Part shown: one piece after another, positions 6,385-62,465 of the stretch
How the letters are laid out: each line of letters begins with the position of its first letter
How positions within the stretch are numbered: the stretch's first letter is position 1
NCBI GenBank assembly: GCA_965214095.1
Contig: OZ243938.1
Location: 5,056,001 to 5,120,000 of the forward strand
From: Candidatus Poribacteria bacterium
GTDB taxonomy: Bacteria; Poribacteria; WGA-4E; WGA-3G
Length of the DNA stretch: 64,000 nucleotides
Direction of reading: 5' to 3'
Program-made: the position numbers and the translations under genes
Notes under the pieces: model-generated
Databases searched by the model: none
What the model saw: the letters and a program-made list of their open reading frames with translations, nothing else
What the model was told of the DNA's origin: nothing

Positions 6385-6411
6385 ATCAACAAGGCAATGA
6401 GGAGGACACCA

Positions 6412-6624: not shown

Positions 6625-6687
6625 ATTGGGATAAGATGGACGAGGCGGAGCATGAAACTTTTGTTAATTACCTCATCCATGAGGATC

Positions 6688-7016: not shown

Positions 7017-7040
7017 ACGTTGGTGAGTGAGAGATATATT

Positions 7041-7391: not shown

Positions 7392-7393
7392 TA

Positions 7394-7762: not shown

Positions 7763-7774
7763 TATTCAGTGATT

Positions 7775-8020: not shown

Positions 8021-8040
8021 AAAGTAAGGAAATGCTATTT

Positions 8041-18642: not shown

Positions 18643-19001
18643 AATTCTTTCTCCATCTCCTTAGCTCGTCTTAATCTTCGTTTAATCAAGTCAATATCCT
18701 TCTTTGGGGTTCTAATTCCACGTTTTGATTTCTTTTGAAAACAGTGCAGTACATACATGCTTCGACCAATTTTAACCGAGTAAACGACTCGGTAAGTATC
18801 CGTAGCGTAGGTATCGACAAGTTCAAACACTCCAGATTCTATACCCTTCATGGGTTTTGCCGATGGCGGGGTCTCGCCAATTTGTACACGATACAAAGCG
18901 TGTCCAATATCCTTACGCACCTGCTCCGGGAAAGCCTGTAACCTTTCTTTTGAATCACCAACCCACTGAACGTTTCTGGGGGTTGTTATCTCATGTTCCA
19001 T
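18639..19001 (-). CDS. higB: HigB/RelE-ParE family toxin (Gp49-like)
   Basis: 'YRVVY...YVLHCFQKKSKRGIRTP'; toxin-first order. Confidence 0.88.
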   Translation of the reverse strand: MEHEITTPRNVQWVGDSKERLQAFPEQVRKDIGHALYRVQIGETPPSAKPMKGIESGVFELVDTYATDTYRVVYSVKIGRSMYVLHCFQKKSKRGIRTPKKDIDLIKRRLRRAKEMEKEL

Positions 19002-23145: not shown

Positions 23146-23182
23146 ATCTCTGTTTTCCTCTCTATTCAGTTTGGCTTATGTT

Positions 23183-23211
23183 ATTTTAATGATTTGTATA
23201 ATGGATGTCAA
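23183..23211 (-). promoter_or_regulatory. sigma70 promoter for the sulfatase-dehydratase pair
   Basis: TTGACA-17 bp-TAAAAT. Confidence 0.6.
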
Positions 23212-23297
23212 GTAGAAAGTGGAAGTAATCTTAGGGATACAGATGTAGGTGAAAAATGCAGTAAACAGTGATATAATTCCCAATTAGGTATAGATAG

Positions 23298-23957
23298 ATG
23301 AAAAACCTTTTGTTTGATTATCCCAGAAAAGACACTATAATTCAGATAGGTGATAGACAAATCAAACTCACGATTGTTGATGATCCAGATCGATTCTTGG
23401 ATACATTGAGTCGTGAGGATTGTGATGGGAGACTGTATCTACCGTACTGGACATACCTCTGGGAATCTTCTATAGGACTGGCACGTCACGCATCTGAGTT
23501 GGGTAATACAATTGCCGGACAACATATCCTTGAGATCGGTTGTGGTTTTGGACTTGCAGGAATAGTTGCCAGCCAAGTGGGAGCAGAGGTGATTTTTTCA
23601 GATTTTGAATATGATGCTCTTCTATTTGCACAACACAATGCACAGCAAAATGGTATTCGTTCTGTAGATTATGTTCAGGTGGATTGGAATACGCCGTGCT
23701 TTCAATGTCAATTTGATGTCATACTTGCATCTGATGTGATATATGAGGAACAGAATTGGCACCCCATAGTTCAATTACTAAAGAACTATCTAAAACCTGA
23801 TGGCATTGCTATTTTTTCTGAACCGAATCGCAAAAACGCAGGTGGATTTTTCAAAGATATTCGTAAAAACGGATTTACCTTTGAAAAATTCACTTGCTTT
23901 GTCACGTTAGACAATAAGGAAAGACAGGTTAACCTATACACAATTCAAAGGAATTAG
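23298..23957 (+). CDS. Class I SAM methyltransferase (METTL21/Methyltransf_16-like)
   Basis: 'PYWTYLWESSIGLA', 'LEIGCGFGL', 'DVILASDVIYE'. Confidence 0.85.
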   Translation: MKNLLFDYPRKDTIIQIGDRQIKLTIVDDPDRFLDTLSREDCDGRLYLPYWTYLWESSIGLARHASELGNTIAGQHILEIGCGFGLAGIVASQVGAEVIFSDFEYDALLFAQHNAQQNGIRSVDYVQVDWNTPCFQCQFDVILASDVIYEEQNWHPIVQLLKNYLKPDGIAIFSEPNRKNAGGFFKDIRKNGFTFEKFTCFVTLDNKERQVNLYTIQRN

Positions 23958-26161: not shown

Positions 26162-26225
26162 CTAATCTTCGGGCAGGAGACCCAATCCTTTAGGTTTGGG
26201 AGGAATGCCCGCTCCTATGTTTTTC

Positions 26226-26254
26226 TTGACAATAAATGTCAAACTTGCTAAAAT
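26226..26254 (+). promoter_or_regulatory. Internal sigma70 promoter of the mini-element
   Basis: TTGACA-17 bp-TAAAAT. Confidence 0.7.
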
Positions 26255-26257
26255 ATA

Positions 26258-26566
26258 TTCGGAAAGTTCAATCACACGTAGTCGTGTGTGAGGTTGTCCG
26301 CAGTCTTTGGTGCTATATGTTGCGGAGCATAAAACTGAAAAACATATACGCTCTCACTACCATAGACACATAACAATTGAGTGGTAGGGACATGGGAGGT
26401 AAAAAACCCAGTCCGAAAACACACTCTCAAATAATAAGTTGCTCTTTTAGAGCAAGTGAGGTTGCTTAGAACCCACTGTGGAGACGAAATAAGACGGATG
26501 ATCCTTTTGGTGAAACGCAACGTCTATGAAGCACAAGTCCAACCCTTTAGGTTTGGGTACTATGAC
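26258..26566 (+). ncRNA. Putative structured non-coding RNA (multibranch domain plus omegaRNA-like 3' part)
   Basis: TTCGGA(26258)/TCCGAA(26412) closing stem around TCACACG/CGTGTG, TCCGCA/TGCGGA and CTACCA/TGGTAG stems; then TTGCTCT-TTT-AGAGCAA; directly after the promoter. Confidence 0.5.
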
Positions 26567-26627
26567 TGGAGACCTCCATCGTAATGTAAGGTTTGTCAGA
26601 AAGACTTTGTCAATTTTAAGAACAGAA

Positions 26628-28955
26628 TTAACTTGTCTGCATCGCTTCTAAATCCATCAAACGACGTGCCTTCCGTACAAGCTTGAACAATTCTTTTTCC
26701 TGCTCTTCACTTTCGGAATTCTTAGACTGTAGTTGAGGTAGAATGCCTTTGAGAATTCGCTGCACTGCACCTAAACTACCATCCTTTGCCCAATAACTTT
26801 CGCGTAGGATTTCAGCGAATTGTGCGACTGAGGCAGCAACCTGAAAATCCGGTGTAGTATCTTCAAATGAATCTTTCAGGTCTTCAACGCTGATTTTTTC
26901 ATTGACTTCCGTCACCTCTGCTGTGTCAGGATCTTCATGCCGAATAAAGACAGTGGCAAGTTTCTCTTTATCCACATTCTTGCAGAGTTTGACTTCATAG
27001 AGTGCGGTAACACTGTGTCCCGAACCGATTTCACCCGCATCTGCTTCATCGTTACGGAAATCTTCGTGTTCCATCTGACGGTTCTCGTACCCTAACAATC
27101 GGAACCGACTGACTGTATCCTCGTTGAATTCCACCTGAATTTTCGCATCCTTTGCAATAACCTGAAGCGTGCCTGTCAGATTTTGCACAAAGATTCGTTT
27201 CGCTTCTCTGAGGCTGTCAACGTAGGCATAATTTCCGTTGCCTTTCTTGGCAAGTTCTTCCATTAGGACATCGTTGAAATTGCCCATGCCGAACCCGACT
27301 GTAGTGAGGTAAATATCATCTTGATCCACATAATCACGGATTTCTTTGAGTAGCATAGCGGGATCTGTTACCCCTTGGTTTGCCACGCCATCTGAGCATA
27401 AGATAACACGATTGATACAACCTTTTTCCGCATTCTTACTGGCAAGTTCATATCCTTTGTGTATCCCGTCTTCAACATTGGTTACACCTTCAGGACATAG
27501 AGCATCAATTGCATTCAAAATATGTTTTCGGTTCACTGCACTTGTATGTGGCAGAACAACCCGTGCATCTGTGCCGTAGACAACAATGCCGATCTTATCA
27601 TTCGGACCAAGTTGCTCTACTAAGAGACGTAACGCTTTCTTCACAAGACCTAATCGATTTTCCATACCCATTGAACCGGATACATCTATGACAAATGTTA
27701 GATTTGCATCCTTTCGGTCAGTATCTTCTATGATTTTTCCTTGAATACCGATACGGACTAATTGGAGTCTTTTACCGTTTCCAAATTTTGAGGGTGCCCC
27801 TTCAATGTGAACGGCAAATGCATCTTCTGTTGGCGGTGTGTAGTTGTAATCAAACGCATTGATAAATTCCTCAACTCTGACAGACTCTGGTTGTGGGAGA
27901 TTGCCATCGTGGAGAAAACGACGCATGACTGCGTAAGATGCAGAATCTGTGTCCATAGCAAAGGTAGAAAACTTGTCATCTTCTGTGTCAATGAAAGGAT
28001 TGGTGCCATGTCCTTTGAAGAATACATCGTGATATGCAGTTCCGTTTGGTGGGGTTAATCCCAATCTTGACACGGACTGTCTGCGTAACACAGATTGCTC
28101 CATGAGCCTTTCAGTACCTCTCACATTCAGAGGTATAGACCTTGATAGTCGCTGTTCCATTAGCTCTGGAGAAGAATTCGCCTTAACGAGAGAATCCATT
28201 GCAACACCAACACGTCCGCTGCGGAATTCTAGTTCAGATACTTCTGACAATCCAAAATCTTCTTCAAATGAGAGGAGTTCTGCAGCTGTACGTGGACGTT
28301 CAACCAAGGAATATGAACATACAAAGTTTTTGTCTAACTGGACATCGTTGCTTTGGTAGGTCAGTTTCGCAAGCCCTTCAGATTCTTGGTCAATCTTGAC
28401 AGCGTGTGAAGGGGAATTGACAGTTTTTATCCCAATTCCATTATCTATAACTATGGACATCTCAAAATTACCAACAGATTGGTTGCTTTTTAATGGATGC
28501 GTGTAGGTGATATTTTCATCAGTAAAATTTAGACGTTCATCATACCTTATCTGAACACTACACGCGCCTCTAGCAGGAATCTTTAACACCTTCGTCTGTA
28601 AGTGTGAAGATGTAATCGACTCTAAAATGTCAGCATCTGAAGTCTGGAAGGCATCCCCATATATCTCTTTTAATTTTTTCTTATTTGCCAGTTTAATAGG
28701 AATTACCTTTTTATCAATACGGACTTCATATCCCTTGTTTCTTTCCTGTTTAGGTTGTGGAATAATGAACACACCCTCAACTGGCGAATTATTTGGATTT
28801 CTGAAAACGACTTCAACATCCGTCTGAGTAATTGCGTTTTGAATTCGGACATTCAAAAGGTAGTGTTCAATAAGCAGCTTTTCAAACTTGCGGGTTTCAT
28901 CTGGACGTTGAAGAAATAAAGTTTGTGCTAATGCACGAAGTTCTGATTTTTTCAT
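26628..28955 (-). CDS. Chimeric VIT-like + YfbK-type vWA protein
   Basis: N-half similar to the VIT region of 23954..26161; C-half similar to 29365..31050 (DVSGS MIDAS, IAKDAKIQVEFN, DAGEIGSGH). Confidence 0.85.
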   Translation of the reverse strand: MKKSELRALAQTLFLQRPDETRKFEKLLIEHYLLNVRIQNAITQTDVEVVFRNPNNSPVEGVFIIPQPKQERNKGYEVRIDKKVIPIKLANKKKLKEIYGDAFQTSDADILESITSSHLQTKVLKIPARGACSVQIRYDERLNFTDENITYTHPLKSNQSVGNFEMSIVIDNGIGIKTVNSPSHAVKIDQESEGLAKLTYQSNDVQLDKNFVCSYSLVERPRTAAELLSFEEDFGLSEVSELEFRSGRVGVAMDSLVKANSSPELMEQRLSRSIPLNVRGTERLMEQSVLRRQSVSRLGLTPPNGTAYHDVFFKGHGTNPFIDTEDDKFSTFAMDTDSASYAVMRRFLHDGNLPQPESVRVEEFINAFDYNYTPPTEDAFAVHIEGAPSKFGNGKRLQLVRIGIQGKIIEDTDRKDANLTFVIDVSGSMGMENRLGLVKKALRLLVEQLGPNDKIGIVVYGTDARVVLPHTSAVNRKHILNAIDALCPEGVTNVEDGIHKGYELASKNAEKGCINRVILCSDGVANQGVTDPAMLLKEIRDYVDQDDIYLTTVGFGMGNFNDVLMEELAKKGNGNYAYVDSLREAKRIFVQNLTGTLQVIAKDAKIQVEFNEDTVSRFRLLGYENRQMEHEDFRNDEADAGEIGSGHSVTALYEVKLCKNVDKEKLATVFIRHEDPDTAEVTEVNEKISVEDLKDSFEDTTPDFQVAASVAQFAEILRESYWAKDGSLGAVQRILKGILPQLQSKNSESEEQEKELFKLVRKARRLMDLEAMQTS

Positions 28956-29096
28956 CGTGATCTCCTTTATTGTATTTTTGGGTTTGTGATTTGTGTGACT
29001 TAGTTGTAAATGGAAGAGTTGTTTTGCATTTAGTTGGAATATATCTTAAACGCAATATGGGAAGAGAAAAGGTATCTCAACTCTACAATTACGCTA

Positions 29097-29121
29097 AGAC
29101 GTTTTAGTGGCAAAAAGGTTT
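29097..29121 (-). promoter_or_regulatory. Possible ECF-sigma promoter
   Basis: Minus strand AAAC-16 bp-CGTCT upstream of 28955. Confidence 0.35.
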
Positions 29122-29158
29122 AATATATTTGGAAGTAAATCATGGTATCAGACAGAAC

Positions 29159-29185
29159 ATAGGGCGGGCACAAGGTCCGCCCTAT
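29159..29185. repeat. REP-like palindrome / possible terminator
   Basis: ATAGGGCGG-GCACAAGGT-CCGCCCTAT. Confidence 0.55.
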
Positions 29186-29211
29186 AATCTACAAGGAACT
29201 AAGCAGAAAGA

Positions 29212-31050
29212 TTAACCCTCTTCCTGTTCTTTCAACTGACGTGCCTTTTGCACAAGCTCAAGCAACTCCTCTTTCCGCTCTTCTTGCTGAGGTGTTTTTG
29301 ACTCAATCTCCTGAAGAACGCCTTCAATTGTCTCTTGAACAGTAGTTAAAGAACCTTTTTTTGCTCAAAAACTTCCCCGAAGGATTTCAGCGAACTCCGC
29401 AATTGCACCGACAAGTTGAAACTCAGCAGATGCATCTTGATATGAACCTTTCAATTGTTCTGAGGAGATAGTTTCGCTAACCTCTGTAACCTTTTGTGTG
29501 TCGGGGTTTTCATGCCGAATAAAGACAGTTGCAAGTTTGCCAATCGCATCTTCATGAAGTTTAATCTCATAGAGTGCGGTTACGCTATGTCCAGATCCAA
29601 CTTCCCCTGCGTCTACATCGTCTTTGCGGAAATCTTCATGTGCAAGTGCACGATTTTCATATCCGAGTAGGCGGAAACGACTGACTGTGTCGGGGTTGAA
29701 CTCAACCTGTATCTTTGCATCTTTTGCGATGACTTGTAGTGTGCCAGTAAGATTCTCTACGAACACCCGTTTTGCTTCTTTAAAGGTGTCAACATAAGCA
29801 TAACTACCGTTCCCTTTATTGGCAAGTCGTTCCATCAAAACATCGTTGTAGTTACCCATGCCAAAGCCGACTGTAGTAAGCGTTACACCTTCCTTAACAT
29901 AGTTCCCTATTGTATTAAGGATAGCATCAGGACCTGTATTCCCAACGTTTGCTACACCATCTGAACAGAGGATTACACGGTTGATGCAATTTGACTTTGA
30001 GTTCTTTAGTGCAAGTTTGTATCCCATCCGAAGTCCTGCTTCCGCATTCGTTGACCCTTCTGAACGAAGTTGATTAATTGCCTCTGTGATATATTCACGG
30101 TTCTCTATACCAGTATGTTCAAGAACAACCCGTGAATCAGAACCATAAACTACGATCCCAACCTTATCAGTAGGACGAAGTTGATCAACAAGAAGTGTCA
30201 ATGCTCTTTTCACTAAACCTAACCGATTTTCCATGTTCATTGAACCAGAGACATCAACCACAAAGGTAAGTATAGCGTCTTTTCGGTCTGTATCTGGAAT
30301 GACGCGACCTTGAATACCGACACGGAGTAACTGAAGTCGTTTACCTTCTCCAAATTTAGAAGGAGCACCTTCTACGTGAACTGCAAATGCATCATCTTTG
30401 GGAGGCGTATAGTTGTAATCAAACGCATTAACAAATTCTTCAGCGCGGATAGCGTCTGTAGGCGGAAGGTTTCCATCTCGGAGATAACGACGCATTACAG
30501 AATATGAAGCAGTGTCTACATCCATCGCAAATGTAGAGAAGTTGTCATCTTCTGTATCAATGAAAGGGTTGGTGCCATGGTCTTTATAGAAAACATCTTG
30601 ATACGCTGCACCGTTTGGTGGGTTTAATTGCGGTGCTTGTAGTTGTAATGATGCTACTTGATTTGGTTGGCTCGCTGCACGCGAATAAGCCAATTGTGGT
30701 GTACTATTTACTACACTCAGGTTGGAGTGGATACTCGCTTTAGGCACAGGTACATTGGAAGCAATTGACTCTGACGATTTCATCATCCTTTGGGAAATTG
30801 GTTTAGATAGTCTTTTGGTGTGTGCAACCGTCTCTTGCACCGTAACATTCTGCGGACTAACTATACCTCTCACAATTGGTCTACTAAGTCTTGGTTTCGG
30901 TGGATCCGGTGGTTCAAACGTCTCTACTGCGACGACATCTTTGATTTGCTGGGTTTCTTGGTTATCTAAACGAAGGTTGATGATAGTTACAACGATGAGG
31001 AGGAGCGCAAGTGAAATAAAAAACGCCCCTGCGATTCTTTTGATACGCAT
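29212..31050 (-). CDS. YfbK-type vWA protein with N-terminal anchor; premature TGA at 29365-29367
   Basis: vWA/DUF3520-like; frame continues 50 codons past the TGA with homology to the paralog's C-terminus. Confidence 0.8.
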
Positions 31051-31096
31051 TGCTTTTTACCTCCAAAAGTAAAAACAGGTGATTTAGATTGTTAAT

Positions 31097-31112
31097 AGCA
31101 AATTGTATGCCA
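31097..31112 (-). promoter_or_regulatory. sigma54 -24/-12 promoter
   Basis: TGGCAT-ACAAT-TTGCT matches TGGCAC-N5-TTGCW; 47 bp upstream of the vWA gene; inverted repeats upstream. Confidence 0.75.
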
Positions 31113-31210
31113 ATACAAGAACGCAAAATTTAGGTCTTTTTGCAGGACTCTCGGCAGAATCCTGCACTAACCTGTGCATTTTCTATACAGTGCTGCACGA
31201 AAATGGACAA

Positions 31211-32740
31211 TCATCTTTCATTTTTTGTCTGAGTCTGTTGCAAGTATTCTGATATCTGTTTTGTTAATCTTTTTTCAATAGTCTTCATTTTCGGTACCCC
31301 CGCGAGATTGTTTGTTTCATTTGGGTCATCATGCACATTAAACAGCAGATAAGGGGTTCCTTCTCTATTTAATACCATTTTCCACTCTTGATTCAGCAGC
31401 ATAATTTCACGAGATATTTCGGAAATAGCGAATTCACGGTGTGGTGCTTCTGTGTCATCAAGAACAGGAGACAAGGACTTTCCGAACTGTCTATGCTTCA
31501 ACTCCCCTCCCGCCATTTCAACGAGTGTGGGTCCGATATCAATCCATTCAACAGGACTATCACAAGTGCGATCAGTGGTTGTGTCTTTTAAGGTATCAGG
31601 TGTACGCACAAGAAATGGAATTCGGACTGCTCCATTTAGGAGGTTACTTTTGTAAATCAACCCATAATCTCCGTTCATCTCACCATGGTCAGAACAGAAA
31701 ACGATGACAGTATTATCCAGTTCTCCGCGTTGCTCAATTGCACCCAAGATTTCGCCAATTTGATCATCAATGAGGGTAACATTTCCAGCATAATCCGCAC
31801 GCATTTTTGCCACATCACCTGCGTCAAATTTAGGACTTTTCTTCTTATTTTTCATAAGGTTGTCTAAACTTCCACGAGGACGGTTTTCTGCAGCTTGACG
31901 AGGTACGGGTTGTGGCATATCATCCGGATTATACATACTTGAATAAGGTTTTGGACAATCCCAAGGTTCGTGAGGTCCACCGAAACTCACCCAGCAAAAC
32001 CAAGGTTCTTTGCGGTTATAGTCTTGAAGATATTGCTTTGCTTGTTGTCCAACGTATACATCCGCATCATTTTCAAGTCCGAGTGGAGTGGGACGAACAA
32101 GATGAGGTCTCGTTTTGAAACGTTCCTGATAGTCCTCACGGTATGCTTTCCAGATACCTTTCTCTTCCCACATTTCTGTCATATAGGATAGGCATTTCAT
32201 ACTTGCTCGGGGACCACCAATCTCATTCACATCGTCTAATCCGTAAGCGTGCATCAAATGCTCACGTTTACGAAGATCACCAGTATTCGTGTGGAGATGT
32301 GTTTTACCGAATAGACTCGTGCGATATCCTGCCTCTCGGACAGCTTGCATCCATGTTGGAGTATCAGGTTTCATCTTATGCTTTTGGTTGTTCCAAACGC
32401 CGGTGTTGTGTGGATACAATCCTGTTGCTAAACTGAGGCGTGCAGGAACACAAACAGGTGATGTAGTAACACAATTAGTAAAACGTACACCCTCGTTTGC
32501 AATTCTGTCCATGTTTGGTGTTTGAACCCAATCACCACTGCACCCCATGGCATCCCACCGTTGCTGGTCTGTCATCAGAAGAAGGATGTTCGGTTTCTTG
32601 GACTCACTTGCAGGTTGTTGATCTGCCTTCGCTCCCTGTACACCAGTGTTTGTGGCAACAAGTGATATAGCACCTGCTCCTGCTACACCTAGATTCTTGA
32701 TGAACGTTCTGCGATTGATTTTATCGGATTTAGTCTTCAT
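31211..32740 (-). CDS. Tat-exported sulfatase
   Basis: NRRTFIK Tat motif; CVPAR; GKTHL; SDHG. Confidence 0.9.
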   Translation of the reverse strand: MKTKSDKINRRTFIKNLGVAGAGAISLVATNTGVQGAKADQQPASESKKPNILLLMTDQQRWDAMGCSGDWVQTPNMDRIANEGVRFTNCVTTSPVCVPARLSLATGLYPHNTGVWNNQKHKMKPDTPTWMQAVREAGYRTSLFGKTHLHTNTGDLRKREHLMHAYGLDDVNEIGGPRASMKCLSYMTEMWEEKGIWKAYREDYQERFKTRPHLVRPTPLGLENDADVYVGQQAKQYLQDYNRKEPWFCWVSFGGPHEPWDCPKPYSSMYNPDDMPQPVPRQAAENRPRGSLDNLMKNKKKSPKFDAGDVAKMRADYAGNVTLIDDQIGEILGAIEQRGELDNTVIVFCSDHGEMNGDYGLIYKSNLLNGAVRIPFLVRTPDTLKDTTTDRTCDSPVEWIDIGPTLVEMAGGELKHRQFGKSLSPVLDDTEAPHREFAISEISREIMLLNQEWKMVLNREGTPYLLFNVHDDPNETNNLAGVPKMKTIEKRLTKQISEYLQQTQTKNER

Positions 32741-32744
32741 AGGA

Positions 32745-34121
32745 TTATTTTTTGGTTTGTGTGTGAAATAGGTGTTCTAAAATTTGCAGCCTTAGTTCTG
32801 TTTCTAACTCTTTCATTTCGGGTTGTCCAGCAAGGTTATTTATTTCATCTGGGTCATCTTGCACATTAAAGAGAAGATAAGGTATACTATCACCGTTTAG
32901 CGCAATCTTCCATTCCTTATTGAGCAGCATGATTTCACCCGATATTTCAGAGATCGCAAACTCACGGTGCGTTGCTTCGGTGTCAGCAATAGCGGGACAT
33001 AACGACTTGCCATACTGCCGATGTTTCAATTCACCGTCAGCCATTTCAACAAATGTTGGACCGATATCAATCCATTCAACAGGATTGTCGTTGATTATCC
33101 CTTCTGTGCCATTTTTTACTGTTTCGGGAGTTCGGACAAGTAGAGGGATACGCACTGATCCATTGAGGAAGTTACCTTTGTATATCAGTCCGTAATCTCC
33201 GTTCATTTCACCGTGGTCTGAAGTGTGAATGATGACGGTATTATCAAGTTCACCCCATGCTTCAATTGCTTCAAGTATTTCACCAATCTGATCGTCTATG
33301 AGTGTTATATTACCAGCATAGTCTGCACGTAACCTTTGTTCCTCACCCTCTTCAAATTTGGGATTCATCCGATTCATCATATTGTCTAAATTACCACGAG
33401 GACGATCTCCAGCAGGTTGACGTGGAATAGGTGGTGGCATATCTTTTGGGTCATACATACTGGCATAAGGTTCGGGTGTATCCCACGGTTCATGAGGTCC
33501 ACCGAAACTTACCCAGCAGCACCACGGTTCTTGTCGGTTGTAATTCTGTATATACTTCTTTGATTGTTGACCGACGTAAACATCAGCATAGTTTTCAAGA
33601 CCAAGTGTTGAAGGACGAACTATGTAGGGTTTTGTGCTGAATCTTTCTTTATAATCCTCACGGTAACCTTGCCAAAGTCCTTTCTCCTCCCACATCTCTG
33701 TCATGTGAGACAGAACTCGACTACTTGCTCGTGGTCCGCCTATTTCATCAACATCATCTAAACCATACGATTTCATTAAATCTTCTCTGTCACGTAAATC
33801 TCCGTTGTGCGGATGAAGGTGTGTTTTTCCGAAAAGACTGGTGCGGTAGCCTGCATCACGTACCGTCTGCATCCAAGTTGGAGTATCAGCAGACATCGAA
33901 TGATGCATGTTATTCCAAACACCCGTATTGTGCGGATATAAACCCGTTGCTAAACTGAGACGTGTAGGGATACAGACCGGAGATGTGGTCACGCAGTTAG
34001 TAAAACGGACACCTTCATTTGCAATTCTATCTAAATTAGGTGTTTGCACCCAATCACCACTGCAACCCATTGCATCCCATCGTTGTTGGTCTGTCATGAG
34101 GAGAAGTATATTTGGTTTCAT
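32745..34121 (-). CDS. Cytoplasmic sulfatase (close paralog of neighbour)
   Basis: CIPTR; no signal peptide; long identical blocks with 31211..32740. Confidence 0.9.
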   Translation of the reverse strand: MKPNILLLMTDQQRWDAMGCSGDWVQTPNLDRIANEGVRFTNCVTTSPVCIPTRLSLATGLYPHNTGVWNNMHHSMSADTPTWMQTVRDAGYRTSLFGKTHLHPHNGDLRDREDLMKSYGLDDVDEIGGPRASSRVLSHMTEMWEEKGLWQGYREDYKERFSTKPYIVRPSTLGLENYADVYVGQQSKKYIQNYNRQEPWCCWVSFGGPHEPWDTPEPYASMYDPKDMPPPIPRQPAGDRPRGNLDNMMNRMNPKFEEGEEQRLRADYAGNITLIDDQIGEILEAIEAWGELDNTVIIHTSDHGEMNGDYGLIYKGNFLNGSVRIPLLVRTPETVKNGTEGIINDNPVEWIDIGPTFVEMADGELKHRQYGKSLCPAIADTEATHREFAISEISGEIMLLNKEWKIALNGDSIPYLLFNVQDDPDEINNLAGQPEMKELETELRLQILEHLFHTQTKK

Positions 34122-41758: not shown

Positions 41759-42808
41759 TTACGTATGGTCTCTATGCCATTCCTGAACTGCTCTTGGAAT
41801 TTCCTGCAGGTTTTCAATAGTGGTTTGAAGGGGGATAGCACACTCAGGACCAATCAGCGGGACACCTGCATCAAGATTTTTCATAACTTCTGCTCTTACG
41901 TCTTCCGGTTCTTTGGCAAAAAGCGTTTCAGGATTGTTGATATTGCCAACCAGGGCGATCCGTTTCTGGACAATATCCATAGATTCTTTCGGTTCGTTCT
42001 TTGAGTCGTAGTGGAAGGCTGCCATTCCTGTTTGCGCAATGTATTCCATCCGATCCACAGTGCGTCCACAGATATGTAAAATTAATGGTATAGGAATTCT
42101 ATCTACAAATTCAATGTGTAGGTCGCGGAGATAACGTTGATAGTATTCTCCACTCACAAGGTCACCTGTTGCGTGATCGGGGAGTGTAAGAGCATCTGCA
42201 CCTGCTTCTATCTGTGCAATACCAAACTGCACTGTCGCTTCCTTCATACGATCCAATGCGAGTTTTGTTTTACCCGGATCATCAAGCGATAACAACAGGA
42301 ATGGTTCTACACCGAAGCAGTGGTATCCGAGCGACCAAGGTCCCATCGTCTTACCGATGACAGCAACTTCATCACCATATTCTTTTTTCAATATCTTAAT
42401 CGCTTCAAGCACACATTGAGTATCGGGATGTGTGAGGAAATCATTGGGAATAGAAATGTCGTCAACATCTTCCCATATCGGTTCACGCATCTTGACGGTG
42501 GGCCAGTTATCCTTCTGTTCCCACTGTATTTTGCAGCCGAGAGCACTGGATTCTTGGATAATCGTGAAAACTGGCATAATCGTGTCAAAACCGAGTTCCG
42601 TATAACCTGTAGCGGCAAGCCTTGCCATTAGTTCAGGTTCACGATTTGCTTGTGGAAAGGGGGCATCAACTAAATCCATCAATTCCACTGTTGCAACGGA
42701 GGTAGGATTGCAAACAGGGGTGCGGTCAGTCGGTTCATTGCGGAGAGCAGCAAGAACACGTTCACGACCTGTCATCGCCTTTATGGTTTCACCATCTTTA
42801 TTATCCAT
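41759..42808 (-). CDS. MtaA/CmuA-family methyltransferase (uroporphyrinogen decarboxylase fold)
   Basis: 'MTGRERVLAAL', ILHICG Zn motif, GNINN, PECAIP. Confidence 0.85.
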   Translation of the reverse strand: MDNKDGETIKAMTGRERVLAALRNEPTDRTPVCNPTSVATVELMDLVDAPFPQANREPELMARLAATGYTELGFDTIMPVFTIIQESSALGCKIQWEQKDNWPTVKMREPIWEDVDDISIPNDFLTHPDTQCVLEAIKILKKEYGDEVAVIGKTMGPWSLGYHCFGVEPFLLLSLDDPGKTKLALDRMKEATVQFGIAQIEAGADALTLPDHATGDLVSGEYYQRYLRDLHIEFVDRIPIPLILHICGRTVDRMEYIAQTGMAAFHYDSKNEPKESMDIVQKRIALVGNINNPETLFAKEPEDVRAEVMKNLDAGVPLIGPECAIPLQTTIENLQEIPRAVQEWHRDHT

Positions 42809-42817
42809 TACATTAAC

Positions 42818-43456
42818 CTATATCTGTTGACTGGGTGCAGAAAGCACACCACGGGAAGCAGTTGTTTCCTCTTCACGCATAATAACACGGACATTTGGCG
42901 CACGAACTAATAGCAAACCGACAAGTGCATCATGGGACCGTCCACACGGAAAAGAGACAGTATCACCATCACTATCCAGTCCTGCATGCATTTCACCAAG
43001 CTTCATCAATCCACCAGCAATCGCAGATACACGCCGTTCAGCACCGCGTCCCTCACCATCGGAAGTTACACGGTAAGAGCCGCTTCCTAACGAATCAACA
43101 GTCATCATTAACTTAGATTTTTTGTCAAGTGTATTCAATGGACGGGGTTCGGCCGGTGTGTTCGGTGGAATTTTGCAGGCTTCTAAAAAGACTCTACGAC
43201 ACGCTGCCTCATGACTGTCACCACAAGAAAAGAAAACCTTCTCATTTGACAACTCACTCATTCCACCTAAGACCTGCATAGAATTGGCAACTTCCTGAAT
43301 TCTCCCAGAGGCACCTTCTTTACAGCTGTAAGTGTGGATTCGGAAAATAGTACACGCGTCAAGCTCCTCTAGGTAAAGTGCAATCGTAATATCATGAAAA
43401 TGAGTGTCAATCGGAACGAGTTCAATACGTCTACCGATATTTACTACTGATGGCAT
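42818..43456 (-). CDS. Hypothetical protein with duplicated C-G-x-S-H motif
   Basis: FFSCGDSHEAA and SFPCGRSHDAL; 9 bp upstream of the MtaA-like gene. Confidence 0.65.
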   Translation of the reverse strand: MPSVVNIGRRIELVPIDTHFHDITIALYLEELDACTIFRIHTYSCKEGASGRIQEVANSMQVLGGMSELSNEKVFFSCGDSHEAACRRVFLEACKIPPNTPAEPRPLNTLDKKSKLMMTVDSLGSGSYRVTSDGEGRGAERRVSAIAGGLMKLGEMHAGLDSDGDTVSFPCGRSHDALVGLLLVRAPNVRVIMREEETTASRGVLSAPSQQI

Positions 43457-52264: not shown

Positions 52265-53617
52265 CTATTCCAGTGAAAGAGTTACATCAATCTGTTCACC
52301 ATTACGTAGTAATTTCACCAGCAAAGACTTTGCTTGTGCTTGTTCTTGTAACACATAACCGATTACACCGCTTTCTGAAAGGCGGTCTGTACGTTCACCG
52401 AAACCAACAATGATGTCACCACGACGGATTCCTGCCCTTTGTGCATTCGTCTGTCCACCACCTCTACGTCTATCGCGACGAGCAAGATTCTCAACATGTA
52501 ATGCCATCGCAGTGTGATCAATCCCACTTTGTTTTCGTTCAGCATCAGACAAGTCTTGAAGCGTCATCCCACCGAGGGCAACAAGACGCAGTTCACCTGT
52601 TGTCGTACGCCAAGAGATATCGCTCTGTTTACGCCAACCAGGGTTGAGTGTAAGATTGAGAGAAATCTCTTCTCCATGACGATTTACTTTTGCCGGTAAT
52701 GTAGTGTTTTCTGGAGAACGGTGCAACACCCACTGCAAATCTGCAATAGAGATGATCGGTTGTCCAGCAAGCGTTAAGACTTCATCCGCCCGTTCAAATC
52801 CATCTTTTTCTGCAGAAGAACCTGGTGTGACTCTACTAACTTTCGCACGATGTTTTGAAGAAAAGTGAATACCTAACAGGTCTGGCATTGGAAAAGGATA
52901 TAACACTTCATCTGGCACCGGTTTCCTATCATACCAGTGAATCTCACGCCTTGCTTCACCAATTTGATGGCAATGAATACACTGTCCTCCAAGCCGTTGA
53001 TTGAGATTCACATCGGATGGAAAACGTAATAAAGCAGGATAAGCCTCGGGTGTTTTCTTTAACGGTTCAGGACCTGTTTTGGCTGCTAAAATATCCTTGT
53101 TCTCTGGGTAACCTTCATGTAATTCAAGAGCGGCTTCAAGTGCAAGTTTAAATCCCTCTATAGATATATCTTTGCCAGCATTTCGGAAGTCAGTCCGTGT
53201 TCCGAAACGTCCGTAAATTGTTCTGTCTGCATTCATGAAAAATACTGCAAAAGTGAGATCATAATCAAATTGAAACAGAGATAGATCAATTCCGTTTCCC
53301 TGTACAATCCGAACCCGTACAAACTGTTCCATTAAATCTTTGATTTCTTTATCGTGACGAACAACCTGTTCGTCAAAGTCTTGGCAAGACACTCACGGCA
53401 CTCAGCGGAAAACTACTAATAACGGTTGTTCTGTCTTTTCCGCTTGTTCAATCCCCTTATCAAGGTCGTTATAGATCCAATAGCCAGTAGATTTCACCAT
53501 CACTTGATCTTGTGCGACTTCTCTGTCTCCATCTCCAAAACACAGGATAACTGCAGACACGAAAATCATAAAGATCAAAAAATGTTTCAATAATTTCATC
53601 AACGTTTCAAACTCCAT
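52265..53617 (-). CDS. Thioredoxin-like/PDZ selenoprotein with two in-frame UGA codons (UxxUxxC) and CxxCH
   Basis: ORFs 53402..53617 and 52265..53392 are in frame; junction CGC TGA GTG CCG TGA GTG TCT TGC = R-U-V-P-U-V-S-C; SECIS-like hairpin follows; two PDZ-like domains. Confidence 0.8.
53355..53375 (-). promoter_or_regulatory. Candidate bacterial SECIS element
   Basis: TGACGAAC-AGGTT-GTTCGTCA perfect 8-bp stem with G-containing loop, starting 17 nt after the second UGA. Confidence 0.6.
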
Positions 53618-53752: not shown

Positions 53753-56002
53753 TCATTTATCTGTAATATCCCAAATGAGTACCGTGCCATCCAAACTGCC
53801 ACTCGCAAGCGTGCTTCCATCAGAACTATATGCAAGGGAAGTTAACCCGAACTGCCCACTAAAGGACGAAATGATTTGAAATAAATTCATGTCCCAAAAG
53901 TGGATAGAACCATCACCATTCCCATTTGCCAGTATTTTTCCATCAGGACTGTAAACGAGTGAGGATACCTTACTTCGACCTCGCGCAGTGATATTTGGTG
54001 GGTCATCAATTTCCCTTGGCAGACTCGGAGACGGGTCAAAAAGATCGTTTCCAATAAGAGAAACTTTGTGCTTACCTGTATTTGGATCCCATAAATGGAT
54101 TGAACCATCTCCACATCCACTTGCAAGTGTTCTCCCATCAGGACTGAAGGTGACAGTCTGTATTCTATCTGTATGTCCTTCAAGCGTAGTAATAAGTTTC
54201 CGATTACGTACATCCCATAGACATATAGTTTTATCCTTACTACCACTTGCAGCTATACTTCCATCTGGACTCAAAGCAACTGAAGTGATTTGGTCTGTAT
54301 GTCCCTTTAGTTTTGCTTTCTGGGGACCAATGAAAAATCCCAAAACTCGTTGGAATATTGAATCTGATTCTGCAGCCTTTGCATCCCAAATTCGTAGCAT
54401 TCCATCTGAACCACCTGTTACAAAGATATTGCCTTCGGTATTATACGATATTCCACCACCATGTGATATATGATAACTATTCTTATCTATTGCTTTACTA
54501 TGTCCTTTTTGAGTCTTCTGATATGCGCCTGTTTCCGCGTTCCAAAAGAAGATTTCTGCTTTTCCTGCAGGACGCATATTTAGGCTTGCTAACGTTTTTC
54601 CGTGTGGAACAAATGTCAGAGATTGAATATATAATTGATACGGATACCCATCACAAGTAGTATTGAGTTTTCCATTTACCACATCCCATAGCCTAATCTT
54701 CTCTAGATGATGACCACTTGCGAGAATATTTCCCTCATTATTAAATGCAATAGAACTTACTTCACCGTTATGGCGTTTAATGATATGACGTAGTCCAGAT
54801 TTTTTTGTATTTTCTTTATCTATTTTCCATAAGTAAATACGTGTTTCTTCATTATTCATAGAACTTCGTGCAGCAAGCGTGCGTCCATCTGGACTAAACA
54901 TTAGATAATAGAAGTGTCCATTTTCTCTAAATAAAAATTTGGGTTCTCCATCCTCAGTATTCCAAAAGATTATACCACCATTTGTTGATACAGCGAGTGT
55001 GCGTCCATCTGGACTGAATTTAATTGATGTAACTCTTTTTGTTGGATAATTCACTATCTTAGGTATGTTATTAGCTATAGCCAGGATTTTTAAATTTCGT
55101 GGATCGTTGGCCAGTGTATTCTTCAGTTGACCTGTCTGTGTATCCCATAACTGCACCTTATAATCATCGATTCGTGCCGTAGCGAGTGTCTGCCCATCTG
55201 GTGATATTGTAAATGGATGTCGATAATGACCTTCAAGTTCAATTCTCATTTGCAACTTACCAGTATTTGAATCCCAGAACTTCGCTTCATTTTTAGAAAA
55301 ACAGAATAGAGCACTCCCATCGTTGATAAAAACAATGTTATTAGCACCTGTTGTATCTTCTAATTTTGCTATAAAACTTCCAGTTTCAATGTCCCATACC
55401 AGAACTTCTTTTTTTTTGCTACTTACTATAGTTTTTCTATTCGGACTAAACATCACACTGGAAACTCTTTTGTGGGGTGTTGTAATCACACGGTGTTCCC
55501 CATTTTCAATGTTCCATAGCCTTATTTTGTTCGAATAATCTGTACTTGCAAGCATTTTTCCATCAGAACTAAAACTGACTGATAAAACTCTATTGGTATG
55601 ACCCTCAAGGGTGGTTTTGATTTGGTTGGAATTTAAATCCCATATATCAATCTTATGCTTTCGCATATTTGCACAGAGTTGTAAATCTGGACTTAGAATG
55701 ATATTATCTGTCAAATATCCATTTATTTTTGATAAACTTATCTCTTTTCCTGTCATAACATCGTATAACCAGACACCAATAGAAGTTATCACAGCAAGTT
55801 TCGTATTGTCAGATGAAAATTGATATGAATTTCCCTTTCCTATAGTCGTGAGATGGCTTTCCAGGTTTGCCATTTTGCCCTTACCAAGTCTCAACTTTGC
55901 ACCTTTTGGCAATTCCCATAGTGTGTAGTCATCCGAATATGAGTATGAAAGAAATGTCAAAGTTAATAGAGATATTGCAATCATTGCATGAATCGTTCTC
56001 AT
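53753..56002 (-). CDS. Secreted WD40-repeat protein
   Basis: 'W.LPKGAKLRLGKG' N-terminus; many 'GHT..V.SV.FSPDG..LASG..D..I.LWD' repeats. Confidence 0.92.
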   Translation of the reverse strand: MRTIHAMIAISLLTLTFLSYSYSDDYTLWELPKGAKLRLGKGKMANLESHLTTIGKGNSYQFSSDNTKLAVITSIGVWLYDVMTGKEISLSKINGYLTDNIILSPDLQLCANMRKHKIDIWDLNSNQIKTTLEGHTNRVLSVSFSSDGKMLASTDYSNKIRLWNIENGEHRVITTPHKRVSSVMFSPNRKTIVSSKKKEVLVWDIETGSFIAKLEDTTGANNIVFINDGSALFCFSKNEAKFWDSNTGKLQMRIELEGHYRHPFTISPDGQTLATARIDDYKVQLWDTQTGQLKNTLANDPRNLKILAIANNIPKIVNYPTKRVTSIKFSPDGRTLAVSTNGGIIFWNTEDGEPKFLFRENGHFYYLMFSPDGRTLAARSSMNNEETRIYLWKIDKENTKKSGLRHIIKRHNGEVSSIAFNNEGNILASGHHLEKIRLWDVVNGKLNTTCDGYPYQLYIQSLTFVPHGKTLASLNMRPAGKAEIFFWNAETGAYQKTQKGHSKAIDKNSYHISHGGGISYNTEGNIFVTGGSDGMLRIWDAKAAESDSIFQRVLGFFIGPQKAKLKGHTDQITSVALSPDGSIAASGSKDKTICLWDVRNRKLITTLEGHTDRIQTVTFSPDGRTLASGCGDGSIHLWDPNTGKHKVSLIGNDLFDPSPSLPREIDDPPNITARGRSKVSSLVYSPDGKILANGNGDGSIHFWDMNLFQIISSFSGQFGLTSLAYSSDGSTLASGSLDGTVLIWDITDK

Positions 56003-59315: not shown

Positions 59316-62300
59316 TTACATTCCTCCACGCGGACTCCATTGTACCATATAATCGGAAGGCACTTCGCGGATGAACATAGACGTAGAAAGCTCACGATCA
59401 CCATATCGGTAGATTGTAGATGACAGAAACAGTTGCTTCTGAGCACGAGTCATACCTACGTAAAAAAGCCGACGTTCCTCTTCAAGCTCAGCATCAGTGG
59501 TGTCCTGTTTCCACATCGGAAAACTCCCTTCCTCCATTCCGATGATTATGACAACAGGAAATTCCGTGCCTTTTGCAGCATGAAGTGTCATTAATGTAAT
59601 CTGTTCTGTGTCATCATCTATCTCATCATAATTCGTCAGTAATTTCTGAAAACCCAAGAACTCTAATAGGCTGTTCCCTTGATCTGACTTCAGATATTGC
59701 AAAAGTAGAGTCCGAAACTTTGATTTAGTTTCTATCCAAGCAGTGTCCTCTTGCATAATAGGAACATCAGTCTCTTCTAACTCTTTAAAGTAAGCTTCAA
59801 CTTGTTCCTCTTCTGTTGACTCAAAGGGGAGATCTTCATGTATCTGTTGAGAACCTTCCTTGACCACACGTATAGCAGCGTTTAAAAATGCCCTCTCTTC
59901 TGTAATATTCTTGTCGTTTTTAACTGAAATATCTGTTTTGTCAAGAATACCAAGACCAACAAACGGCAATAAATCGGTAAGTGATTGCACTTCTCGCTTC
60001 TTTAGGTCAATCCTTATCAATTCCTTGAAAATTTGTCTGTTTACTTCAACATCTTCCATAGCACGATGTAAAGTTTTGTGTTCAATTCCAAATTTCTCAG
60101 CAAGTGATTCAATACCACATCGTTGACGAGGAAATAGTCTACGTGCGGTGACAAGTGTATCGTAGTAGGGATTTGTCAGATTCTGATCTAAACAATCCTG
60201 TAATCCACGTTCCAGAATTGGGTTGTCATACTGCGCGACATTATGTCCAATTAGGATACGATCTTGAATGAAACTATAGAATTTCGGGAGAACCATCTCA
60301 ATACTCGGTGCGTCCTTTACATCCTCACTACTTATACCGTGAACTTTCGTAACTGACGGTGGTATGTATCCACCGGGTGGTTTCACTAAGCGAGAAAACT
60401 TCTCAACTTCATTGCCAATTACATTAAGCCGTTTCGCTGCAATCTCAACAATATTTGCGCGTCTGATATCAACACCTGTAGTTTCTAAATCATAAATCAC
60501 CATATCAGACATATTCGGTGTTTCAAATCTACTCAATAACCGTTGGCAAAGTTTTAATGCGGCGATACAACGTATCTTACCTGAACCAAGTTGAATCACA
60601 TCTGACTGTTCAGAGATGGTAGTACCGATAAGAATTGATCTCGTCTCTATACCCTTTTCTCCCAGTTCTCCAAAGTCGCCAATAAGTATATTAACTGCAT
60701 TTCTGTTGAGTAGCTGTTCACTGTCACCATCTGAGGTTTCATTTTTGGGTAAATATTGGACTTCTACATTCTGATCAAGATAAGATTGTAGTGTTTGACT
60801 AATTATATATGCTGAACAATATTCATCTATGCCATAACTTGCAGTGATCTGAATTTGTTCACCACGATCAAGAACACTATACAGAACATCTTGGGCCAAA
60901 CCCAAATTTGATAAATCCGACTTATTCTCAATAGCAGCTAACTCTTTGTTGCGGTATGGACTTCGTATCATGTCTAATTTTTCAAATAGAATATTGACAA
61001 TTTTATCTATTTTTTTATCTTCAATTTCATCTTCCAATGTTGCCAATTGTTCCCAAAAACTACTGATGTTCTTTCGTGTTAATGGACCGACATCCTCTGG
61101 ATACTGTTCAATATTCCGTAGGAGTTCTTCCAATTCTAATTTTTCACGTTTTGCTAACCACTTCAGTCGCACCCAAGTAAGATCGTCAACCCTTTTTTCA
61201 GGAAAGTTAATTGCGATTTCTAAGTCACGTGGAAGTCGCCACTGAATATAACAGAGATATGAAAGAATACCCTTCAGTCTTTCGTCATCAAAGGAATTGG
61301 TTGGTCGTATCCGTTGAAATTTTATTTTAGATCGTATCAATTCTTCTGTCAGAACATCCGCGAGTCTGTGTGTCCTGTAAAATACGGCAATGTCGCGATA
61401 TGAAACATTCCGTTCACTAATCAATTTACTGATAATCCTGATAATAGTGCGTGCTTCCTCAACAGGAGTCATAAATGTATAGTGAAATATATCCCGTCCT
61501 TCATCTTTGTGGGATATAAGACTGTGCTGAGCCTGTCGCAAAGGATTATTCGCAATTACTTCTTCTGCAGCGCGTAGAATCGTTTCACTACATCTATAAT
61601 GATCGTCTAATTCAACTGTATATGGAGAGTAATTAGTTTTGAAATCGTCTATGAACTGCGGATTTGACCCGCGCCAACTGTAGATAGACTGGTCAGCATC
61701 CGCAACAACCATCAGATTGTTCTCTGGTGGAGCAGTAAGGAAACGAAGAAGTTGGTATTGAACTTCGTTCACATCATGATATTCGTCAACAAGGATGTGT
61801 GAAATCTTTTGATGGTATTCCTGCTGTACTTCAGCAACTTGTTCAAAAAGTATCACCGTTCTTATCAACAGATCATCAAAATCAAAGGCATTGTATTCAT
61901 TAAGTTTGCTATGATAGGCATTGAAGGCATTTACTATATTCGCTTCAGCATCAGGATCGTCTATTTCCGCGATATAATCCTGTTTAATCTCTATATTATT
62001 CTGAGCATAATCAAGTTTGCATTTTGCGTCGCTGATTGCATTCCGTAGTAACCACACAGGATAATCATTTGGGTGAAGATTCAACTCCTTTATGACTTCT
62101 ACGAGTATTTCATCCTGTATTTCTTGGTCAAAAATAGCAAAGTTTTCACTCAGACCGATGTGATGTACGTGACTTCTGAGCACCTTCACACAAAAAGCAT
62201 GAAATGTGGAAACATTAATATTTGAACCGTGCGGTTCTCCAATTTCATTGTTGACACGATCACGCATCTCTTGTGCGGCTTTATTCGTAAAAGTAATCGC

Positions 62301-62465
62301 AAGGATATTACCAGGCTTGATTCCGTGATGACGAATTAGGTAAGCAATACGGTGCGTAATGACTTTTGTTTTACCCGTACCAGGACCTGCAATTACAAGT
62401 ATCGGTCCAGTGTTGTGTTTTACTGCTTCTGTCTGTTTTTCATTTAAATCGTGGAGAATGTTCAT
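59316..62465 (-). CDS. UvrD/PcrA-family helicase with inserted RecJ-like and DEDDh exonuclease domains
   Basis: AGPGTGKT, DEYHD, DQSIYSWRG, MTLHAAKGTEF, EERRLFYVGMTRA; insert with DLETTG..HNVAQYD..HRAMED. Confidence 0.88.
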   Translation of the reverse strand: MNILHDLNEKQTEAVKHNTGPILVIAGPGTGKTKVITHRIAYLIRHHGIKPGNILAITFTNKAAQEMRDRVNNEIGEPHGSNINVSTFHAFCVKVLRSHVHHIGLSENFAIFDQEIQDEILVEVIKELNLHPNDYPVWLLRNAISDAKCKLDYAQNNIEIKQDYIAEIDDPDAEANIVNAFNAYHSKLNEYNAFDFDDLLIRTVILFEQVAEVQQEYHQKISHILVDEYHDVNEVQYQLLRFLTAPPENNLMVVADADQSIYSWRGSNPQFIDDFKTNYSPYTVELDDHYRCSETILRAAEEVIANNPLRQAQHSLISHKDEGRDIFHYTFMTPVEEARTIIRIISKLISERNVSYRDIAVFYRTHRLADVLTEELIRSKIKFQRIRPTNSFDDERLKGILSYLCYIQWRLPRDLEIAINFPEKRVDDLTWVRLKWLAKREKLELEELLRNIEQYPEDVGPLTRKNISSFWEQLATLEDEIEDKKIDKIVNILFEKLDMIRSPYRNKELAAIENKSDLSNLGLAQDVLYSVLDRGEQIQITASYGIDEYCSAYIISQTLQSYLDQNVEVQYLPKNETSDGDSEQLLNRNAVNILIGDFGELGEKGIETRSILIGTTISEQSDVIQLGSGKIRCIAALKLCQRLLSRFETPNMSDMVIYDLETTGVDIRRANIVEIAAKRLNVIGNEVEKFSRLVKPPGGYIPPSVTKVHGISSEDVKDAPSIEMVLPKFYSFIQDRILIGHNVAQYDNPILERGLQDCLDQNLTNPYYDTLVTARRLFPRQRCGIESLAEKFGIEHKTLHRAMEDVEVNRQIFKELIRIDLKKREVQSLTDLLPFVGLGILDKTDISVKNDKNITEERAFLNAAIRVVKEGSQQIHEDLPFESTEEEQVEAYFKELEETDVPIMQEDTAWIETKSKFRTLLLQYLKSDQGNSLLEFLGFQKLLTNYDEIDDDTEQITLMTLHAAKGTEFPVVIIIGMEEGSFPMWKQDTTDAELEEERRLFYVGMTRAQKQLFLSSTIYRYGDRELSTSMFIREVPSDYMVQWSPRGGM

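Follow-up and report, generated by a model that had tools for sequence, protein, structure and literature searches.

Two in-frame UGA codons, probably both read as selenocysteine, in a Trx7/PDZ protein gene of Poribacteria

The locus and its reading frame

This study concerns a gene at positions 52265-53617 of a 64,000-nucleotide stretch of DNA from a Candidatus Poribacteria bacterium (GenBank assembly GCA_965214095.1, contig OZ243938.1, positions 5,056,001 to 5,120,000), to which we refer as the window in the following. The gene lies on the minus strand, encodes a protein that joins a thioredoxin (Trx) fold to a tandem of PDZ domains, and is interrupted by two in-frame TGA codons, both of which are probably read as selenocysteine (Sec, U). 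Just downstream of these codons lie two hairpins, H1 and H2, the latter of the selenocysteine insertion sequence (SECIS) type. Residues and codons are counted from the ATG at 53617. The features of the gene are listed here for reference:

52265..53617, minus strand: the whole gene for the putative Trx7/PDZ selenoprotein, with 450 codons from 53617 or 444 from the ATG at 53599, and the stop codon TAG at 52267-52265
53534..53599, minus strand: signal-peptide-like N-terminus (M-K-L-L-K-H, a hydrophobic stretch and C-F-G), recognized by eye from the sequence; the N-termini of homologs are of the same kind
53402..53404, minus strand: codon 72, the first of the two in-frame TGAs and the additional Sec position, on a Cys column in homologs
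53393..53395, minus strand: second in-frame TGA, codon 75, the usual Sec position of the family, which corresponds to the first of the two Cys in the canonical Trx CxxC
53384..53386, minus strand: Cys78 (TGC), the presumed resolving Cys of U-x-x-C, aligned to the second Cys of CxxC
53378..53390, minus strand: small hairpin H1, 5 bp with the loop GCC, a putative element; a hairpin is found here in 25/25 U-x-x-U genes, in shifting registers
53355..53375, minus strand: SECIS-type hairpin H2, with a stem of 8-9 bp and the apical loop GGU at 53366-53364, conserved and covarying in Sec genes
53228..53479, minus strand: Thioredoxin_7 domain, residues 47-130 (PF13899, E = 1e-15)
52877..53227, minus strand: helical linker, residues 131-247, delimited in the AlphaFold2 model and without family assignment, with C213-I-H-C216-H217 at 52981-52967
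52646..52876, minus strand: PDZ domain 1, residues 248-324 (PF13180, E = 2.5e-12)
52274..52600, minus strand: PDZ domain 2, approximately residues 340-448 (TIGR02037 over residues 253-446, tandem-PDZ matches in Foldseek and the secondary structure of the model)

Mechanical calling of open reading frames (ORFs) divides the gene into a piece of 71 residues (53617..53402) and one of 375 residues (53392..52265), which begins with a GTG right behind the second TGA. When translated as a whole, the minus-strand frame from 53617 or 53599 to 52265 is a single ORF whose sole interruption is TGA-GTG-CCG-TGA: the first TGA (53404-53402) is followed by GTG, CCG and the second TGA (53395-53393), and the frame closes with the TAG. 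The read-through product from 53617 comprises 450 residues and contains the stretch ...L-V-V-F-R-U-V-P-U-V-S-C..., with U at codons 72 and 75. An initial annotation, made from the DNA sequence alone, had described two ORFs in one frame that are split by these four codons only, and both the coordinates and the read-through stretch LVVFR-U-V-P-U-V-S-C bear this out.

Conservation of the two TGA positions

Among the best 120 matches to the read-through product in a protein collection clustered at 90%, 18 are full-length homologs (439-457 residues, 44-48% identical). All of these have Cys at both TGA positions, in the motif R-C-[IV]-P-C-x-x-C, whose third Cys does not vary (23/23 of the alignment); homologs had been expected to show Cys or Sec at both positions. 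The other 102 matches are gene calls of 253-383 residues that lack the Trx7 domain, 99 of them (P0002-P0100) being 66-96% identical. The gene is therefore split in the public annotation of close relatives as well.

For the comparison of genomic loci, we used one genome per species and examined the best 80 of 571 confirmed relatives. Their motif takes three forms, U-x-x-U in 24 loci, C-x-x-U in 21 and C-x-x-C in 35, while U-x-x-C does not occur. Position 72 is thus encoded by TGA in 24/80 loci and by TGC or TGT in 56/80, and position 75 is TGA in 45/80 and Cys in 35/80. Each of the 21 loci titled Poribacteria has the U-x-x-U form, as does one from an ‘uncultured bacterium’ (L009) that sits among them in the tree. 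The remaining two are metagenome-assembled genomes (MAGs) of Planctomycetota, L025 and L036, with R-U-V-T-U-H-A-C and R-U-I-S-U-H-A-C. The nearest relative of the window is L001, with a protein 96% identical and conserved neighbours 90-96% identical, which marks the window as Poribacteria-like. In the tree, every U-x-x-U gene falls into one clade of 40 genes, together with 15 C-x-x-U genes; two changes are needed to explain the distribution of the U-x-x-U form, and a single origin remains compatible with it. Judged by these sequences, the predicted two-Sec form is fixed in the Poribacteria relatives examined.

The pieces that gene callers produce are exactly those of a broken or split gene, in which translation would stop at the first TGA and a separate 375-residue PDZ protein would start from the GTG behind the second. 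We regard this as very improbable. The break would cut the Trx fold within its active site, and 24 other genomes, with identities as low as 66%, have retained the two TGAs together with the frame and the hairpin. The upstream piece also evolves as coding sequence in this frame: over the 46 codons upstream of the first TGA, the window differs from the 24 U-x-x-U loci at 241 first, 149 second and 567 third codon positions, a bias from which it follows that this stretch is under purifying selection and translated. A genome-wide reassignment of TGA to a standard amino acid, in the manner of code 4 or code 25, is a still more remote explanation and close to negligible. It has nothing in its favour beyond the two in-frame TGAs themselves, whereas in the window, which has a G+C content of 41%, TGA terminates 8/50 non-overlapping ORFs of at least 90 residues. 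The domains encoded ahead of such TGAs are complete (Gp49, profile positions 2-89 of 90; arylsulfatase, 3-460 of 486), and the two TGAs in question fall exactly on Cys columns. The two called ORFs are one recoded gene, not two.

The comparison also bears on the translation start. In 22/24 U-x-x-U loci, a Met (M-K-L-L...) aligns with the ATG at 53599, and six loci have a stop within six codons upstream; the first ATG, at 53617, is specific to this window. Hence the conserved start is more likely the second ATG (53599, 444 codons) than the first (53617, 450 codons). The earlier proposal of an exported protein with a signal-like N-terminus retains its support from the likeness to homologous N-termini, with the start corrected to 53599.

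Family, domains and fold

Against the NCBIfam family NF041199, ‘Trx7/PDZ domain-containing (seleno)protein’, the read-through product scores 391.4 bits, with residues 46-448 aligned to positions 1-389 of the 390-position profile. Because this score of 391 bits lies above the curated cutoff of 300, we place the protein in this family. Together with the matches to PF13899 and PF13180, this agrees with the Trx7/PDZ identity first assigned to it. The two PDZ-like domains named at the same time fare differently: Pfam alone finds the first only, and the second is backed by TIGR02037, a DegP-type profile that spans residues 253-446, and by Foldseek. The TIGR02037 match reaches 55 bits against a cutoff of 416 and covers the PDZ part only. 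Since Pfam finds no trypsin-like protease domain in the read-through protein, it does not belong with the HtrA/DegP proteases, nor, at 14 bits against a cutoff of 120, with the SelL-related family NF040769 (SelL_rel_redox). Public names such as ‘serine protease Do’ and ‘peptidase’, carried by the relatives P0014, P0037, P0115 and P0119, reflect the PDZ tandem only.

An AlphaFold2 model of the whole protein, built on a 56-sequence alignment, has a mean predicted local distance difference test score (pLDDT) of 94.4 and a predicted template modelling score of 0.90. In a Foldseek comparison of this model with the PDB, the C-terminal half resembles the PDZ tandems of DegP, DegQ and RseP. A separate model of residues 40-245 (pLDDT 88) resembles Trx-fold proteins of the Thioredoxin_7/AGR2/ERp18/DsbD-gamma kind (3f9u, 1sen, AGR2, 3fk8 and DsbD-gamma). 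A sequence search of the PDB with the family profile lists PDZ proteins only among its best 60 matches.

The solved Trx-fold structures also allow a tentative assignment of the active site. In alignments to 3fk8 and 3f9u, which are weak (E 0.06-0.14) and concern two proteins that were also found by fold, the WCxxC motif falls on U75/C78, and U72 aligns to Ala or Gly. As the canonical CxxC falls on U75/C78, U72 is an extra, family-specific position three residues upstream. By these alignments, the motif of the family is an extra Cys or Sec placed three residues ahead of a canonical [C/U]-x-x-C, and the attacking residue is the predicted Sec at position 75, an arrangement shared by most Trx-fold selenoproteins. 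The initial annotation had put Sec at the Trx active-site position; this is refined here in that U75 belongs to the canonical pair and U72 lies outside it.

A separate question, which does not depend on how the UGAs are read, concerns the CxxCH motif of the linker, which had been noted as being of the heme c type. It is present at 52981-52967 and near-invariant among 56 aligned family members (C213 and C216 in 56/56, H217 in 55/56, H215 in 51/56). In the AlphaFold2 model, it sits at the N-terminus of a helix (residues 216-229), within a linker that is confidently modelled as helical (pLDDT 94). We can imagine, without thinking it likely, that C213-x-x-C216-H217 is a covalent c-type heme site and the protein a heme-selenoprotein. 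The conservation of the motif and the signal-like N-terminus, which suggests export, are in line with this, as is a weak match to Magnetochrome (PF18509; E = 0.08, 13 bits against a cutoff of 30.4), the sole Pfam match over the motif. However, no cytochrome family matches the whole protein in Pfam at E <= 0.1, and the Foldseek matches listed from the PDB include no cytochrome, either for the whole model or for the N-terminal half. Moreover, a position at the N-terminus of a helix would also be appropriate for a metal site or another redox-active disulfide. The role of the motif is thus possibly that of a heme c site, a second redox disulfide or a metal site.

A SECIS-type hairpin downstream of the second UGA

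The hairpin H2 forms an 8-bp stem in the window, or a 9-bp stem when a basal U-A pair is included, with a folding energy of -11.0 kcal/mol. It begins 18 nt after the second UGA with the 8-bp stem and 17 nt after it with the 9-bp stem; an 8-bp hairpin with a G-containing loop had been reported at 17 nt, which is the distance of the 9-bp form. The loop lies 26 nt after the second UGA and 35 nt after the first. In the bacterial SECIS (bSECIS) model, as given in the legend to Fig. 2 of PMC13188914, the apical loop has 3-9 nt with a G in its first two positions, the stem has 4-16 bp, the distance from UGA to loop is 16-37 nt and the minimum free energy is at most -7.5 kcal/mol. Checked by hand, H2 agrees with all of these values for both UGAs.

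The evidence for H2 comes from its comparison across 46 Sec genes, which comprise 25 U-x-x-U genes, the window included, and 21 C-x-x-U genes. In every one of them, the stem consists of G-A-C-G-R-R-C-A and its complement, with the loop G-G-U, 18 nt past the second TGA. Of the 8 x 46 cells of this alignment, 98.6% are paired. All eight pairs form in 24/25 U-x-x-U and 17/21 C-x-x-U genes, and seven of eight in the remainder. Two pairs vary in a compensatory manner: pair 38-48 is A-U in 39 genes, G-C in 5 and G-U in 2, and pair 39-47 is A-U in 33, G-U in 10 and G-C in 3. RNAalifold, given no hint, predicts H2 as the sole consensus helix. By contrast, only 2-6 of the eight pairs are found in the 35 C-x-x-C genes, and seven Cys-form genes that encode the same D-E-Q-V-V peptide have only 3-6. 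The codon choice tells the same story. Over its seven codons, the window uses one of the most stable 0.5% of synonymous codings (p = 0.0052 of 1536), and the median p is 0.005 for U-x-x-U, 0.004 for C-x-x-U and 0.22 for C-x-x-C genes. The mean energies of the two Sec forms are alike, with -10.65 kcal/mol in C-x-x-U and -10.0 kcal/mol in U-x-x-U genes. The presence of a SECIS just 3' of the UGA, as first suggested, is thereby corroborated, since the hairpin shows covariation and is confined to the Sec forms.

The simplest reading is that H2 would serve both codons. H2 does not differ between C-x-x-U and U-x-x-U genes, and 26 and 35 nt both fit the range of 16-37 nt. For the UXXU hydrogenases discussed below, a single SECIS has likewise been proposed for both UGAs (PMC13582414).

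As an alternative, each UGA might have an element of its own, with H1 helping to decode the first and H2 decoding the second. A hairpin at the place of H1 has an energy of -2.9 to -6.8 kcal/mol in 25/25 U-x-x-U genes, including the window and the two Planctomycetota, compared with a mean of -1.8 kcal/mol in C-x-x-U genes. Its median percentile among synonymous variants is 0.09 in U-x-x-U, 0.59 in C-x-x-U and 0.44 in C-x-x-C genes, and the first base of its loop is always the G of the Cys78 codon; this places the loop 16 nt past the first UGA, the shortest distance that the bSECIS model allows. Yet the register of H1 shifts between close relatives, with 62% of cells paired in a fixed register; it is absent from the RNAalifold prediction, and its energy is above the limit of -7.5 kcal/mol. 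The signal may also stem from the S/A-C-Q/K-G codons, and the 25 occurrences are not 25 independent observations because the genes are related and a single origin is compatible with the tree. We therefore doubt that H1 is functional, and a division of labour between the two hairpins seems equally unlikely to us.

Decoding of the two UGA codons

Taken together, the family match, the Cys at both positions in 18/18 full-length homologs, the 24 U-x-x-U loci and H2 support what the initial annotation had proposed, a single gene for an exported Trx7/PDZ protein with two Sec codons at conserved Cys positions. We consider it likely that the gene encodes an exported thiol/selenol-disulfide oxidoreductase of the NF041199 family, in which both UGAs are read as Sec via H2. 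SelB and the Sec-tRNA, directed by H2, would insert Sec at both codons, and the signal peptide would direct the product to the periplasm. There, U75 and C78 would form the canonical Trx pair, with Sec attacking, while U72 would act as a third redox residue, which is a Cys in most relatives. The DegP-like PDZ tandem would most likely hold the substrate polypeptide. In Poribacteria, the extra Cys of the family would accordingly have been converted to a second Sec.

Several observations weigh against this interpretation. Taken by itself, the 60-nt stretch of the window folds no better than shuffled sequences (z = -0.95; 30/200 shuffles are as stable), so that the case for H2 beyond chance is a comparative one. 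Neither selA, selB and selD nor a tRNA-Sec was found in the 64-kb window with NCBIfam profiles on 49 ORFs and with Rfam and tRNA scans, and a scan of the 24 U-x-x-U loci, which looked for the tRNA only, found none. A screen of the window for genes with in-frame TGA codons identified no other selenoprotein gene. In Escherichia coli, the distance between UGA and SECIS is reported to be tightly constrained, which would argue against one hairpin for codons that are 9 nt apart. Finally, as far as the searched literature goes, selenium has been shown experimentally in no member of the NF041199 family. Indirect support for Sec in the phylum comes from PMC13582414, which counts Poribacteria among the phyla with Sec hydrogenases and in whose supplement one Poribacteria MAG, of a class that is not relatable to the window, has both a UXXU hydrogenase and two entries for tRNA-Sec.

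The same study raises the question of whether one of the UGAs, most plausibly the newer first one, might be read as Cys by a tRNA-ReC of the selC* type, via SelB at the same SECIS, so that the protein would contain one Sec or occur as a mixture. According to PMC13582414, tRNA-ReC-like genes are enriched in genomes with UXXU hydrogenases (~56% versus 2.3%), and one or both of their UGAs may be read otherwise; in our family, the Cys found at position 72 in 56/80 loci implies that Cys is functional there. Nevertheless, local support is missing, as neither the window nor any of the 24 U-x-x-U loci was found to contain a tRNA of any kind, and the supplement gives two tRNA-Sec entries for its Poribacteria MAG. 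Furthermore, if the protein required Cys, retaining a TGA at each Poribacteria locus would be an expensive means of specifying it. We thus deem this scenario improbable and favour Sec at both positions.

Genomic neighbourhood and other features of the window

The gene appears to stand alone. The DUF3500, methyltransferase and Kelch genes that come after it in the window were found by tblastn at 11, 17 and 12 loci, all within the 24 U-x-x-U loci, and at none of the C-x-x-U and C-x-x-C loci. The neighbours met most often outside Poribacteria are a sulfatase (8 loci), PSCyt/PSD1 (5) and DUF1501 (5), and none occurs at more than 8 loci; since these families are abundant in such genomes, we draw no functional link from them. 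Upstream, the window has a single WD40-repeat gene (53753-56002) that ends 136 nt before our gene, and L001 has two tandem ORFs of ~770 residues (3152-7700). A site resembling a promoter was found at 53774-53747, in a region without enrichment of such sites. A second ‘C-x-x-U’ motif in L010, at ~5400, lies in a non-coding frame and is a match by chance.

Neither the Rfam scan nor the tRNA scan of the window returned a match. Three plausible candidates for in-frame-TGA genes in the window proved to be toxin-antitoxin-type ORFs that end at a genuine TGA stop. Toxin-antitoxin-like ORFs ending with TGA are found at 6337-8071 on the plus strand (RelB-like, 6337-6624; DUF433, 6900-7391; DUF5615/PIN-like, 7394-7762), and on the minus strand at 18313-19001, a Gp49/HigB-like ORF (18639-19001) adjoins another at 18313-18642; all of these resemble toxin-antitoxin pairs more than selenoproteins. 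The region 21787-34121 (minus strand) contains arylsulfatase-type genes (21787-23145, 31211-32740, 32745-34121) around three large VIT/VWA genes with a resemblance to ‘marine sortase target’ proteins (23954-31050). At 41759-43456 (minus strand), a methylcobamide methyltransferase of the MtaA/CmuA family (260 bits against a cutoff of 244) adjoins an ORF of 212 residues that has no family assignment; members of this family are unexpected outside methanogens and acetogens. Lastly, an ORF of 1049 residues at 59316-62465 (minus strand) combines a PcrA/UvrD-type helicase (residues 4-522) with a DEDD 3'-5' exonuclease domain (residues 653-836).

Relation to known systems

The family was introduced in the Global Ocean Sampling study as a ‘putative secreted serine protease MucD’ of the CxxU type, with two Sec sequences and 12 Cys homologs (PMC2398784). 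It was later tabulated as ‘PDZ domain-containing protein, pfam13899, CxxU’ (PMC9312934) and, with reference to NF041199, as CxxU with one Sec (PMC13188914). Our gene shares with the family its architecture, the SECIS hairpin with its spacing to the shared Sec codon, the invariant third Cys and the CxxCH motif. However, whereas the family appears in these tables as CxxU with one Sec, the first Cys is here also replaced by a UGA, which yields U-x-x-U-x-x-C. In the published full texts searched, we found no mention of a two-Sec form of NF041199, though the text of the NCBIfam entry itself may mention it. Existing curation thus covers the family together with its SECIS and the usual position of its Sec, and the U-x-x-U-x-x-C form is new relative to the literature searched.

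Two neighbouring UGAs have been described elsewhere. One parallel is found in the UXXU Group 4 [NiFeSe] hydrogenases, which have two UGAs two codons apart and a CXXU relative with the same downstream SECIS, and which include Poribacteria among their sources (PMC13582414). They are, however, unrelated cytoplasmic enzymes in which the residues are Ni ligands, while the two positions discussed here belong to the active-site loop of a presumably exported Trx fold. UxxU motifs are also tabulated for peroxiredoxin-like (Prx-like) proteins, the metal-binding protein NF041115 and FmdB (PMC13188914), and UxxU sequences of Prx-like 2 were mentioned earlier (PMC2398784). As in SelL and in the Prx-like UxxU selenoproteins, which have a diselenide motif, the UxxU of our protein is part of a thioredoxin-like fold. 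A diselenide between its two predicted Sec residues is conceivable. Yet SelL forms a separate family by the profile score given above, and the UxxU is here shifted by three residues relative to the canonical CxxC, with a third Cys behind it. Finally, DegP, DegQ and other HtrA proteases as well as RseP resemble our protein in their C-terminal DegP-like PDZ tandem; they differ in that our protein has no detectable trypsin-like domain and a Trx fold in its N-terminal half.

For more than 100 close relatives, public gene calls end or begin at the TGAs, lack part of the protein and have peptidase names. The U-x-x-U-x-x-C loop is fixed across the examined relatives from a candidate phylum of sponge symbionts and recurs in two Planctomycetota MAGs, and its added Sec would lie outside the canonical Trx pair U75/C78; both points are new relative to the literature searched, as is the series of motif forms taken up below. 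On a far more speculative note, H1 could have evolved along with the extra Sec as a second minimal SECIS-like element, and the protein could operate as a periplasmic U-U-C selenol relay, possibly with a diselenide, that is coupled to a covalent heme at the CxxCH motif. We think this combination improbable, but if true, it would constitute a class of heme-selenoprotein oxidoreductases without a described counterpart. Independently of this, the U-x-x-U, C-x-x-U and C-x-x-C forms, which share or lack one and the same hairpin, provide a natural series for studying how two Sec residues three codons apart may be inserted from a single SECIS.

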